DNA of 64,000 bases from Cetorhinus maximus (Eukaryota): contig NC_135903.1 in NCBI RefSeq assembly GCF_964194155.1, positions 31,620,001 to 31,684,000 of the forward strand, given 5' to 3'. A program made the position numbers and the translations under genes. The notes beneath the pieces are model-generated. The model was not told the DNA's origin. It ran no database searches and saw only the letters and a program-made list of their open reading frames with translations. Shown in pieces: positions 24,870-30,991 of the stretch; the stretch's first letter is position 1, and every line of letters begins with the position of its first letter.

Positions 24870-25534
24870 AACATAGAATCATAGAAAGTTCACAGCACAG
24901 AAAGAGTCCACTTGTTCCATTGTGTCTACGCTGGGTGAAAAATGAGCCACCCAGCCTAATCCCACTTTCCAGCATTTGGTCCGTAGCCCTGCAGATTACA
25001 GCACTTCAGGTGCATATCCAGACACCTTTTAAATGAGTTGAGGGTTTCTGCCTTTATTACTCTCAGACAGTGAGTTCCAGACCCCTACAACCCACTGGGT
25101 GATTTCCTCATCTCCCCTCTAATCCTTCTACCAATCACTTTAAATCTATGCCCCCTAGTCACTGACCTCTCTGCTAAAGTAAATAGGCCCCTGCCATCCA
25201 CTCTGTCCAGGTCCCTCACAGTTTTGTACATCTCAATCAAATCTCCCCTCAGCCTCCTTGGTTCCAAGGAGAACAACCCCAGCCTATCCAATCTTTCCTC
25301 ATAGCTGCAATTTTCCAGTCCTGGCAACATCCTCGTAAATCTCCCCTGTACCCTCTCTAATGCAGTTACATCCTTTCTGTAAGGAGGTGACCAGAACTGC
25401 ACAGAGTAGTTGTGGCCTAACTAATATTTTATATAGTTCCAGAGTAACCTCCCTGCTCTCATATTCTAAACCTCAGCTAATAAATTAAAGGATTCCATAC
25501 GCCTTCTTAACCACCTTGCCAACCTGACCTGCTA
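24870..25534 (-). mobile_element. CR1 LINE 3' part (host of the R2 insertion; continues at 30149)
   Basis: ORF 25085-25402 reads QFWSPPYRKDVTALERVQGRFTRMLPG...LGLFSLE.RRLRGDLIE. The reading frame AGQVGKVVKKAYG starts abruptly at 25534. Confidence 0.9.
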
Positions 25535-26273
25535 AGTAAAAGATTGATATAAAATATCTAATGCATATTTTGAGAGTTTATGTGTCTCAGCTGCAAAGCC
25601 TTGATTGGTAAAAGATACCTCATTCCCAGTGAAACACAGGGACGGGAGATATTAAAATGTAAAACCGGTGAAAATTATAAAATCTTTGTTGCCACAGGAC
25701 TAACCTAAGCGAGAACTGGGTACGTGAACTAGGGAAAAATTTGTTCAAATTGACAAGCAGATAAGGATCCCTCATCATTTCAAGTGTGATGTTATCAAAT
25801 GGAAATGATAAAATGAAATAAACAGTTTTATTACTATAACAGATAAAAGTTAAAATGTAAAATCTAAAAATAAAGCATTTACAAATAAAAGGAAAAACAT
25901 AAAATATAAAAAGGATAGGCATGTGAAATCAATCGTCCATAAAAATTGGTACAATTTGTATCGCTAAAGCATCGCTAGTCGAGGGACTTGACTTGAAGTG
26001 ATCTACCTGTAAAAATCTCATTAAGGAATGATTTCGTTCATACCATTTACCTCAGGAACCGAGTACAAAACCAAAAAAATTCACATTCCGGCTACCGGTT
26101 AAGGATTTGATTTTGTCAGCCAAATGCTGATATTTCTTGATCTTCTCCTCCCAGGCCTTATCCAATGAGTTATTGGTCCTCAAATCTAATTGTAACATCA
26201 ACAACTGACACTTACAAAAGATTATATTGAGTTTGAAGAGTGATCCGTCATCAGTCCTGATATAAGTCTCCAA

Positions 26274-27715
26274 ATTTTTAAAAATTAATTTACGGAATGT
26301 GGGCTTCACTGGCTAGGCTAGCATTTACTGCCCGTATTTATTTGCCCTTGAGAGGGTAGTGGTGAGCTGCCTTCTTGAACCGCTGCAGTCCATGTGGGGA
26401 ATTTACAACCACAGTGCTGCTAAGGAGGGAGTTCCAGGATTTTGACCCAGCCACAGTGAAGGAACGGTGATATATTTCCAGGTAGGGTTGGTGAGTGGCT
26501 TGGAGGAGAACTTCCAGATGGTGATGTTCCCATGTATCTGCTGTCCTTGTCCTTCTAGATGGTAGCAGTCGTGGGTTTCGAAGGTGCTGTGTAAGAAGCC
26601 TTGGTGAGTTTCTGCAGTGCGTCTTGTAGATGGCACACACTGCTGCAACTGTTCATTAGGAGGGAGTGAATGTTTGTCGAAGGAGTGCCAATCAAGTGGA
26701 CTGCTTTGTCCTGGACAGTGTCAAGCTTCTTGAGTGTTGGAGCGGCACTCATCCAGGCAAGTGGGGAGTATTCCATCACACTCCTGACTTGTGTCTTGTA
26801 GATGGTGGACAGGCTTTGGGGAGTCTGAGTTACTCACTGCAGGATTCCTAGCCTCTGACCTGCTCTTGTAGCCACAGTATTTAATTGGCTAGTCCAGTTC
26901 AGTTTCTAGTAAATGGTAACTCCCAGGATGTTGATAGTGGGGGATTCAGCGATGGCGGTACCATTGGAAAGTCAAACAGTGATAGTTAAATTCTCTCCTG
27001 TTGGAGATGGTCATTGCCTGGCACTTGTGTGGCATGAATGTTACTTGCCACTTGTCAGCCCAAGCCTGGATATTGTCCAGGTCTTGCTGCATTTGCACAT
27101 GGACTGCTTCAGTATCTGAGGAGTCACGAATGGTGTTGAACATTGTGCAATCATCAGCGAACATCTCCACTTCTGACCTTATGATGGAAGGAAGGTCATT
27201 GATGAAGCAGCTGAAGGTGGTTGGACCGAGGACACGACCCTGAGGGACTCCTGCAGTGATGTCCTGGAGCTGGGATGATTGACCTCCAACAGCCACAACT
27301 ATCTTTCTTTGTGCTAGGTATGACTCCAACCAGTGGAGAGTCACCACTCCCCACCCCGATTTCCATTGGCTCCAGTTTTGTTAGGGCTCCTTAATGCTAC
27401 AATGAGTCAATTGCTGCCTTGATGTCGAGGGCAGTCACTCTCACCTCAGGAGTTCAGCCCTTTTGCCCATGTTTGAACCAAGGCTGTAATGAGGTCAGGA
27501 GCTGAGCGTCCCTGGCAGAACCCAAACTGGGCGACAGTGAGCAGGTACAAAAACAAAAATAGCAGGAAAAACTCAGCAGGTCTGACAGCATCTGTTATAC
27601 ATATATGTGGAATACAGTTAACGTTTCGAGTCCGTATGACTCTTCATCAGAACAGTGAGCAGGTTATGGTTAAGCAAGTGCCGCTTGATAGCACTGTTGA
27701 TTACCCCGTTCATCA
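26274..27715 (-). mobile_element. 5'-truncated APE-type LINE nested in the R2 element
   Basis: ORF 26946-27347 reads GVPQGRVLGP..MFADDCT; same family as 16104-19303. It splits the R2 sequence between KHG and LETYIR. Confidence 0.9.
27547..27651 (-). mobile_element. Short Penelope pLTR-derived insertion with an intact hammerhead core and a 13-bp TSD
   Basis: TSD ACAGTGAGCAGGT at 27534-27546 and 27652-27664. Minus strand GTT-CTGATGA-A-GAGTC-ATACG-GACTC-GAAA-CGT-T-AAC. Confidence 0.8.
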
Positions 27716-30008
27716 CTGGATACCCATGTTTAAGCACTTGGACTTTGAGGAGATTGAGGATTTTATTATGCCGATGAATCCTTGCGTTTTTAATATGTAA
27801 ACAGCTACCGGAGATTTGGGAGATTGTCTCATTTAATACATTGCATCCTCTCCATTTCGTAATATTTCCAGGTCTACCGAATGATAAAAAAGAAACCTAG
27901 TTGGATAGGCATTTCCCCCGAGTAGGACTTTAATAAAAACGGACTGTTTAAAATAGTTTAAAAGTAGCCAGTGATTCGAGATATTATTATAAAAACAAGA
28001 AATGCCAATGCCTTAATAGTTAAGTGCAGTCCACCTCTTAAATACATATTCACACCAATTAGGATACATTTCACTATTTTGACTGCTGGGTGTCATTGGG
28101 CATGAGGCACAATTCAACCTGGGGCGCTTTAGCTGAAACGTCTTAAATTATATTAAGGTTGTAAATTTGACTCATTTTTGAACGAAATCCACGCCACCGT
28201 GTAAAAAGGAAGCCTTCACGGTGATTTTATCAGGTCCTGGTGCGGGATCTTTTCTTAAATTGATCAATAATTGTTTTAATCCCATCTTCCCCAATCAAAT
28301 TAAATAATTGAGAAGTAGCGGCCATTCTAGAGTACTTGGAAAATTTACCTAAATGCACCTTGTTATTAGTCTAAGACAATCTCTGTATGAAATGCTCTTC
28401 CAAATCACCTATATTCAAAGGGCTCGAAACTTGATTAGAGCCACCCATCAACCCGTCTAGCCAAGCCTTTCTTGTTAGCTTTTTACAGAGTTGAGCTTCT
28501 TTAAATTTGTTTCTTTTTAGCAAATCCCTTTCTGAATCCGGTATTTTTAAAGGGTGGATTTTTATTTACACAATTCACATGATTTATTGTATCCAATTAA
28601 CTTTACTAGCTTTTGAGCCTATATTAGTTACCTTGCCGAGTATCTGACCCACCAAACAACTCATTTAATTATTATTGGTGCCCTTTTTGTCAATCAACTT
28701 AATTAACGTTAAGGCGTCAAATTTACCCTATTTATTTGGTCCTGTCCCCAAACTGCTACATTATCCCTATTTACATTCGGTTCCTCCTCAGATCTTTGGG
28801 GAATCGTTACATTAACCTCGTCATCGGATGAAAGTGTAAAACCTTCAAGTGAATTAACGTTAACATTTATATTCTCAGAGGCATTTGGATTATTTCTAAA
28901 TTTAGTCATTTGAAATTTGTTTGTTAGTTTTGGTTACTAATATCTTAGCTAGCACAACATTAATATTTTTATGGCCAACATGTTCTTTCTCTAAATAAAG
29001 GAGAAACACCCCTTTGGACCAAATAGAACTTTTGTTTGCAACTGGCCGAGATCGGTCTGAGGCAGCTAGCGATTCTTTTTTGATTTCGTAGTTCTGGGTG
29101 CACACGGATGCTGTGCTAAGAGCTCTTTGTCTTAAAGTTCTTCGCACACGAAGGATAATTATAGATTATATTGACATTGACCTCTCGTGTGCCTCCATTG
29201 CATTTTGAATATTAGTATGTGATGGGATGGTATTCGCCAGTCCTCTGACATCGACTACGAATAACCAAAATCTTAGAACTGTTATGATTATTCCTATAAT
29301 GTCTCCTAAAATTAGTTATAGAGTTTAAAATTACATCACAAATTTAGAATTAAATTGATTACAGGGATAAATTACCTTAATATCATTATATAAGGTATAT
29401 GTTGAACCTATTTAAAGCAATAGTTCTAGTGCCTTATTGATTCACAGGGGTGTCACTGATATTGATATTAGTAGGAGGTTTCAAATTTGTATTATAAAAA
29501 GTTAAACGTTGATAAAATCTCAGTTGTAGGTAACAGCCCAGCCTCTGGGGATGTTCTCTGATGTATCACACTTCTGTTCTCTTGAGCTGCCTCAATCTTC
29601 GCATCCATATTAAGTAATAATTGATTGATATCTTCCAAGCCTGAAGTCTCATTTAATAGCAAAATAGAACCAGTAAATGGTTTTATGAGATCAGCCTCAT
29701 CAGTTTGTGTATGTGAGGATTTGATTAATGTCATGGTGTTAGCAGACGTACCCACTGCACCCCGGTCAAGGCAACAACAGCATTTAACAAAATTGTTAGT
29801 CAGGGAATGTCTAATCAAAGCGGGGATGTTTTTCAACTGGTTAACATCCCAACCGGGAGGGACAAGTTGATCAGGACCATTGTTCATTTAATTTTCGTGA
29901 ACCCTAATGATCCTCCACCTGCGAAGAGAAACGGTTTATCCAAACCGCCCGTCACCTGCCAGCTGCATTCGCCATGGTGCCAGGATCCAGCAAACCGAGA
30001 GGGAGCGG

Positions 30009-30146
30009 GAATCAAGGGAAAAAAATTCCTAGATTAGCCACAACGATTGATTGTCATTGATCGCGACACAACATTACCAGGGGCACCATGTGGATGTTTG
30101 ACCCGCTACGGGTTAGAAATTATAACACCCATAGCCATAGGTCCCA
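30009..30146 (-). ncRNA. Degenerate HDV-like self-cleaving ribozyme at the R2 5' end
   Basis: Elements in order: GGGAC (P1), J1/2 hairpin GCTATGGGT/ACCCGTAGC, GGGTCAA (P2), ACA-TCCACAT-GGT (P3/L3), GCCCCT (P1'), GG (P1.1), P4 stem, GGCTAA (J4/2, putative catalytic C at 30037), TTGATTC (P2'). Confidence 0.68.
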
Positions 30147-30148
30147 AG

Positions 30149-30260
30149 TCAGGGATCTGTGGACATTCACTCCAAGGTCCCTCACTTTCTCCACATCTCT
30201 CATTATCCTCCCATTTATTGTCTCTGCCTTGCTTGACCTCCCAAATTCTTGATTACCAAC
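30149..30260 (-). mobile_element. CR1 LINE, upstream continuation of the 24870-25534 copy
   Basis: Minus strand reads RDLGVNVHRSL, which precedes (KV)AGQV.KVVKKAYG in CR1 ORF2. Confidence 0.8.
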
Positions 30261-30991
30261 ATCCTTTCAAAAAGTGAGTTAACCAGTTTTTGTTTGGAGG
30301 TATTGATCACTGGAAAGTTTTTTCCCACTCGCCATCACACTAATTTTCTTCCGAAGTGTATTGATTCCTTTATGGGATACCGTTCTACAAACTATCACAT
30401 GACCCCTTGTCTAACAGTTAAGTGGTTATCCTCCTTGTGCAAACCTGGAGGGTTTCAGATTATTCAACTGCAGGAGACAAAGCTGAGACTGGCCTGATCA
30501 CTAGCCAGTCTGAACACATTTATTGTTTGGCTCACTGGAACTTCAATCAAACATGCTGCTTCCTAAACAGAATCATAGATTGTCGATACAAAATTAGTGG
30601 TTAACTCTTTAAAAAAAAACCCTTCTTTCTATCATTTCCTCCTCCAAATATTTCCAAGCAGGATATTGGATATTTTTTAAAATTCCCAGACTTGGCACCA
30701 TTGTGCTAATTTACAGGTACAGGGCCTTCTAGTTTATCTTTATTCCTCAGCCTAAATATAAAAAGCAAAATCCTGCTAACAAGGCTGTTTCGGCTATATT
30801 TTGTCAGATTAAACACAATTTCAAATTTAAATGGATCAAGTGTGGAAAAACAGGATATGTCTTTTCAACGTGCAAGTTTATACTATACAAAAGGACAATA
30901 CTGAACACTTCAAAGCAACAAAATTCTATTATTCAAGCAAAGTAAATTTATTCATATACTACACCAATGCTCAAAACATTTTAATTGAATA

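Follow-up and report, generated by a model that had tools for sequence, protein, structure and literature searches.

The window, which is the whole analysed stretch of 64,000 nucleotides (G000:C26:31620001-31684000, within a searched genome of 4.0 Gb), carries on its minus strand a dead R2 copy that begins with a decayed, predicted HDV-like ribozyme (30146-29961). The family to which this copy belongs, hereafter the old family, was repeatedly found at one site within a CR1-like LINE, and the site was likely recognised by the family's own protein; we consider this account of the locus moderately probable. Taken by itself, the ribozyme is ordinary: it belongs to a known class and is likely dead. 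Of more consequence is the LINE-nested setting of the R2 family, which suggests that the lineage likely changed its landing site. The sequence-only reading had left the shared non-rDNA insertion site unflagged, and this site is the more unusual feature.

Anatomy of the R2 copy

The dead R2 copy extends from 30146 to 25535 on the minus strand (Table 1). Its 5′ LINE flank was 86% identical to the empty site as far as position -3, the host LINE sequence ending at 30149. In tblastn searches with the intact rDNA R2 protein of the same genome, residues 176-321, 455-516 and 1047-1266 were matched in the window copy. Residues 517-1046 gave no match there, which indicates that the RT has been deleted from this copy. 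In the family copies, the N-terminal zinc fingers with Myb, the RT, the zinc knuckle and the restriction-like endonuclease followed one another in the R2 order (collinear tblastn matches). The RT piece of one sister copy matched R2 structures with an E value of 4e-37, the best PDB matches being R2 proteins. Two protein searches with R2 fragments returned no matches, a result of little weight. A two-finger clade C identity was considered for the old family and dropped, since the decayed copies aligned in tblastn across all three zinc fingers of the intact R2 protein. The old family is thus R2 by descent and, from its insertion sites, not by target.

Table 1. Coordinates of the R2 copy, its predicted ribozyme and its LINE flanks in the window
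Feature	Position	Strand	Basis or remark
5′ half of the CR1-like host LINE target	30149..30300 (upper bound approximate)	-	Stops 3 nt before the inferred nick
Two surplus junction bases, likely non-templated	30147..30148	-	R2 junction model of PMC3774820
P1 5′ strand TGGGAC, predicted cleavage on its 5′ edge	30141..30146	-	Decayed, 4/6 pairs; sister copies 5/6 or 6/6
J1/2 (P1.2) hairpin, 9 bp here	30105..30135	-	Sequence; 8 pairs 91% paired among copies
P2 5′ strand GGTCA	30099..30103	-	Family: GGTCG or a CpG-type change
Predicted catalytic core: P3 ACA/GGT, L3 TCCACAT, P1′ GCCCCT, P1.1 GG	30077..30097	-	P3 and the conserved L3 G mutated
Long P4 domain	29974..30073	-	16-bp basal helix and ~70-nt interior; RNAalifold
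J4/2 GGCGAATG with predicted catalytic C29971	29966..29973	-	Alignment of 8 copies
P2 3′ strand CAGCT	29961..29965	-	Family: CGACC or a close variant; 95% of cells paired, 8 copies
Disrupted coding sequence for the R2 zinc fingers and Myb	28908..29340	-	tblastn, intact rDNA R2 protein as query, E 4e-13
Broken R2 coding remnants flanking an internal deletion, without RT domain	27720..28517	-	tblastn, residues 455-516, 1047-1106, 1121-1164
Later nested repeats including a LINE RT fragment	26290..27650 (bounds approximate)	-	Interrupt the R2 copy
R2 restriction-like endonuclease remnant	25989..26276	-	Matches R2 structures 9nl3, 9dou, 9nl2, E 1e-7 to 4e-5
ORF end and R2 3′ UTR	25535..25988	-	Also present in family copies
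Host LINE target, 3′ half, beginning TAGCAGG exactly at the nick	25415..25534 (LINE runs on)	-	87% identical to the empty site from +1

Family copies and age of the insertion

Genome searches resulted in 20 loci of the old family, and both this total and the number of ribozyme copies are lower bounds; a first search with a 261-nt query had recovered the window copy alone. All the old-family copies examined were decayed and an intact ORF was found in none. Their 5′ regions were 59-75% identical across 15 pairs. The 5′ junctions were resolved at 10 of the 20 loci, the other 10 being unclear at this end, and the 3′ junctions at all loci except five (C5067, C15:107 Mb, C2:153 Mb, C13:79 Mb and C14:30 Mb). 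The alignment used for the fold comprised 8 copies with a 5′ region, i.e. the window copy and 7 others, the C14 copy standing outside these rows.

An orthologous contig of run X5 (organism label A) covered 29850-30191 with 16 substitutions. A near-complete window stretch was found in label D. The X5 contig crosses the insertion junction, which places the insertion before the divergence of organism labels A and D. Among the four runs compared, the R2 part was covered by X5; X9, X12 and X18 covered the LINE only and were uninformative.

The shared insertion site in a CR1-like LINE

The 5′ flank of the R2 copy terminates in GATCCCTGA and the 3′ flank begins with TAGCAGG. Joined, they form an empty site whose 26-nt sequence occurs 221 times without mismatch in the genome (0 for the control) and which reads as a LINE ORF. 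The frame downstream of the site matched endonuclease/RT LINE proteins, the sources being birds, turtle, frog, sharks and rays; these relatives of the host LINE carry PF00078, PF14529 and PF03372. The host LINE is presumably of the CR1 group, to judge by its motif.

The LINE site was found at 12 of the 15 resolved 3′ junctions. Of these 12, nine align from +1 or +2 and one is short of its first 6 bases; the remaining two were assigned by eye. At the 5′ side the same site was detected in 8 of the 10 resolved junctions, two 5′-truncated copies included. Counted by locus, 14 of 17 lie at the LINE site, and two of the three exceptions still begin with TAG on the 3′ side. None of the 17 loci with a junction was inserted in 28S, and none of the 20 was found in rDNA. 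No 28S sequence was present in 11 old-family stretches, and in the genome searches, whose counts are lower bounds, the rDNA contigs matched neither the core pattern nor the DNA of the old family.

The LINE site mirrors the 28S target in register, AAGG/TAGC (nick at the stroke). Ten empty sites, selected with a pattern that already dictates some of the matching bases, were compared with the 28S target without gaps: 23-27 of 47 bases were identical (background 11.7 +/- 2.9), and the site was the best or tied-best position in 10 of 10 loci. As the sites were chosen by pattern and 3 of ~128,000 window positions also reach 26, the register outweighs the score.

Predicted fold of the ribozyme

The HDV-like R2 ribozyme core predicted where the element begins at its 5′ end is real and not a chance resemblance. 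The letters from which the sequence-only reading had recognised it are all located on the minus strand: GGGTCAA at 30104-30098, ACA at 30097-30095, TCCACAT at 30094-30088, GGT at 30087-30085, GCCCCT at 30084-30079 and GG at 30078-30077. The 9-bp J1/2 hairpin described there pairs 30135-30127 with 30113-30105 and includes one G.U. The core was borne out by 7 more copies, which align with it, and its position at the R2 5′ end by the stop of the host LINE sequence next to it. Several of these 7 genomic copies retain the canonical ACC-TCC(A/T)CGT-GGT.

RNAalifold, run without a supplied structure, recovered the J1/2 hairpin, P2 of the GGTCG/CGACC type, P3 and a long P4. With P1.1 included, 89.7% of the 263 cells of this revised structure were paired in the 8 copies and 17 changes were double-sided, values which are inflated by the relatedness of the copies and come from the same 8-row alignment as the structure itself. 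The double-sided count was equalled by 1 of 500 shuffles, and slid controls were 31-41% paired. Double-sided changes were detected in 6 of the 16 long-P4 pairs, and P3 and P1.1 were 87.5% and 93.8% paired across the 8 copies, respectively. J4/2 and P2′ are placed by the revised fold at 29973-29961, and C29971 is the predicted catalytic residue. Five of the 8 copies have C at 29971; the remaining 3 carry a T followed by G, a change of the CpG type. The X5 ortholog has ACC at P3 (30095) and keeps C29971, and its substitutions at 30070, 29976 and 29974 strengthen the long P4 helix. The layout GGTCG...GGCTAA-(1-2 nt)-CGACC of the revised fold recurs in this genome's intact 28S R2, as GGTCGT...GGCTAA-ACGACC, and by eye in published bamboo-shark R2s.

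The fold proposed from the window letters was different, with a short P4, a catalytic C30037, TTGATTC as the P2 partner and an additional, atypical hairpin separating J4/2 from P2′. The letters do permit it: GGCTAA (30039-30034), the 18-nt stretch (30033-30016) and TTGATTC (30015-30009) are present, GGCTAA is a typical J4/2, and GGCT(A/C)A occurs at the same column in 3 of 8 copies. However, the P2, short P4 and hairpin of this fold were 79.3% paired in 116 cells with 1 double-sided change, a count matched or exceeded by 472 of 500 shuffles in the covariation check across the 8 copies. The C at 30037 is retained in 4 of 8 copies, the letters of the GGAA/TTCC hairpin are found in 1 of 8 rows and are thus copy-specific, and the X5 ortholog disrupts 2 of the 7 earlier P2 pairs, at 30015 and 30013. 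In the family, P2 closes at 29965-29961 instead, about 50 nt beyond the partner proposed earlier, and J4/2 falls at 29973-29966. The 18-nt "atypical insert", together with GGCTAA and TTGATTC, becomes the interior of the long P4. The short-P4 fold is consequently regarded as very improbable. Another P2 candidate, with a 2-nt bulge and ending at about 30005, fitted the window copy by eye and was dropped when the downstream strand emerged.

No Rfam match was obtained in the window at the gathering threshold; with E values up to 5, three loci gave 5 unrelated matches, all far under the gathering score. Single-sequence folding of the window copy was no better than that of shuffles (z -0.58).

The lesions of the window copy are a P3 mismatch, a change of the conserved L3 G to A, and two mismatches each in P2 and P1. 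In Nasonia R2 a G-to-A change of the conserved L3 G abolished cleavage (PMC3774820), and in our reading the window change would fall on the equivalent, inactivating position. The window ribozyme is probably inactive and likely no longer cleaves because P1, P2, P3 and L3 are mutated, and the earlier suggestion of CpG-type decay and likely inactivity was thereby supported.

The R2 HDV-like ribozymes described by Eickbush, Burke, Eickbush 2013 (PMC3774820) have the same nested double pseudoknot and the same ACC-TCC(A/T)CGT-GGT core. In that paper P1 is of 6-7 bp with mismatches, which the old family appears to share in part, and P4 is highly variable. The ~100-nt P4 region sets the old family apart, though comparably long P4 regions may occur among the ribozymes of that paper. 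Two 28S-inserted lineage-A shark R2s, R2-1_CPu and R2-1_CPl (Table S2, PMC13188248), resemble the old family by eye: they have a near-identical core, a similar J1/2 hairpin, a long P4 and a GGCTAA-TA-CGACC closure, and carry three zinc fingers and Myb, as the old family appears to. In that table they are listed with flanking 28S, whereas the old family lies in a LINE.

P1 pairing and the point of cleavage

The sequence-only reading had assigned the 5′ strand of P1 to the element's own first bases. This part of the claim was supported, no 28S lying beside this copy. In the window copy itself, P1′ GCCCCT forms 4/6 pairs with its own first bases, the first position being T-T, and is thus no better matched than with 28S (5/6) or the LINE flank (5/6). 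The self-contained reading therefore rests on the sister copies. Own-end pairing was 5/6 in C1, 6/6 in C15, 5/6 in C3 and 6/8 in C14, and the P1 and P1′ strands co-vary among sister copies. P1 reached only 4/6 in four of the 8 copies whose 5′ end is nearly complete, namely the window copy, C16, C13 and C2b. The P1′ of C3/C15 matches 28S -25 as well as it does its own end. The 28S -28 leader was absent from the start of every old copy examined. The P1 5′ strand of the old family is, as predicted from these pairings, element-encoded and is weak in the window copy; the leader itself may be captured 28S or captured LINE sequence. As no family copy was found in 28S, P1 has no 28S partner in situ.

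The 5′ junctions of the old copies vary, the target stopping anywhere from -1 to -7 (1-7 bases deleted) and 2-13 bases being added. PMC3774820 ties variable 5′ junctions of such type to cleavage at the end of the element itself; it also documents self-contained R2 ribozymes and offers a model of how P1 is internalised. Element-encoded P1 accompanies variable 5′ junctions there in Drosophila, tick and sea squirt, and the old family is alike.

In the bamboo-shark R2s (PMC13188248, supplement file 7, rows 171-172), P1′ is apparently TCCCCCT and does not fit 28S -28, and the G-run at the junction of R2-1_CPu would, by eye, pair with its P1′. A self-contained P1 may accordingly be older than the departure from rDNA.

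Origin of the LINE-site family

In the mechanism proposed here, the ribozyme would cut a read-through transcript at the first G of the element, P1 being built from element sequence; an rRNA co-transcript would therefore not be needed. The R2 protein would bind an upstream motif, nick the LINE between AAGG and TAGC and prime reverse transcription, giving the fixed 3′ junction. Second-strand priming would proceed through microhomology because the leader has no match in the target, and would leave the target deletions and extra bases of the 5′ junctions. The window copy would afterwards have lost its RT, gained the nested repeats and accumulated the mutations in P1, P2, P3 and L3. Both the ribozyme cleavage and the nicking of the LINE site by the old-family protein are predictions from sequence. 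In the broader scenario, to which we assign an even chance, a shark R2 lineage would have left the rDNA and become a site-specific parasite of a CR1-type LINE: an own-P1 ribozyme would have released it from the rRNA co-transcript, and a chance in-register mimic of 28S within the LINE ORF would have offered a new multicopy home.

The main alternative, possible but rather unlikely, is that the old family was 28S-resident, that its masters were purged from the rDNA and replaced by the younger 28S family, and that its strays pooled at an abundant 28S near-match. The old-family masters may have lived in rDNA, since the close bamboo-shark relatives, with similar ribozymes, are listed as 28S-inserted in PMC13188248. 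The copy number of the old family is low, the P1′ of C3/C15 pairs 6/6 with 28S -25, the C15 leader begins like 28S -25, and the younger 28S family likewise leaves many dispersed copies. However, the LINE site accounted for none of the 14 3′ junctions of the younger family, compared with 12 of 15 in the old family, and 28S specificity alone therefore does not lead to this site. The old leaders share subfamily-specific changes (C13/C2b; C3/C15), which is not independent decay from 28S. The lack of 28S in the 11 old-family stretches and of old-family matches in the rDNA contigs, in searches whose counts are lower bounds, also speaks against residence in 28S.

Passive multiplication of one ancient LINE insertion, by segmental duplication or as LINE cargo, would give one junction common to many loci, but the 5′ junctions differ, two 5′-truncated copies join the same site, and in 14 of 15 pairs divergence is greater in the R2 parts (mean 67% identity) than in the LINE flanks (78%), which argues against co-duplication; this explanation is largely refuted and is the least probable of those considered. 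The variable and 5′-truncated junctions point to independent insertions into the LINE site.

The fidelity of R2 to a single 28S site is a textbook case. Very few R2s lack loyalty to the 28S site according to a 2026 review (PMC13580325). The departures described include R8 and R9, at shifted sites within rRNA genes, the non-specific R2NS-1_SMed and R2NS-1_CSi (PMC5035012) and non-specific R2-like elements of cockroaches (PMC7650587). All of these left the canonical 28S site, as the old family probably did. R8 and R9 stayed in rRNA genes and the others lost specificity, whereas the old family strongly prefers one retrotransposon site. Targeting of transposons is described for other non-LTR groups in PMC5035012 and PMC4640811. 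A literature search, covering mostly papers outside subscription, brought up no R2 described as targeting a LINE. A natural R2 lineage that uses a defined site outside rDNA, in the same genome as a 28S-specific relative, would reveal key target bases and shifts of specificity, and is relevant to gene insertion tools built on R2 and to their off-target rules. A route of exit from rDNA is suggested as well, in which the ribozyme first becomes independent of rRNA and an abundant mimic of the target is adopted next.

The younger 28S family and further observations

The intact younger R2 family of the same genome (G000:C261 and others) has the same P2 and J4/2 layout and the same domain order as the old family. 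Unlike in the old family, its P1 uses 28S -28 with 7/7 pairs and its P4 is short. The RT segment of the younger family was 45-46% identical to that of one old-family copy.

The younger family also yields dispersed copies, with TAG at +1. All 9 dispersed copies with a full 5′ end (L126, L127, L128, L131, L136, L137, L139, L140 and L141) start exactly at the 28S -28 G, with no 28S sequence further upstream; three of them look like duplicates of a single insertion. These starts would be a genomic footprint of ribozyme cleavage at -28. L126 (C10) contains an intact frame of 1289 residues, and L127 is joined to telomere repeats. L128, L136 and L140 (C410, C144 and C26) belong to a tandemly duplicated block with repeated younger R2 copies and an identical 5′ junction.

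In 4 of the 5 chromosomal 28S matches listed (L061, L062, L063 and L065), the 28S fragment ends 2-7 bases before the R2 nick. L065 runs on into a decayed younger-family R2, and L061, L062 and L063 show no R2. One rDNA unit (L072, G000:C261) has a deletion spanning the R2 target site.

A copy of 830 nt with an internal deletion (L003:1281-2110, G000:C16) retains nothing but 620 nt of its 5′ end plus the 3′ UTR, much as in the non-autonomous SIDE elements known for Drosophila R2, and occupies a different site, apparently another LINE segment. Transposase-like frames, presumably of Harbinger type, are nested within the C13 R2 copy (L057:3886-5244, G000:C13).
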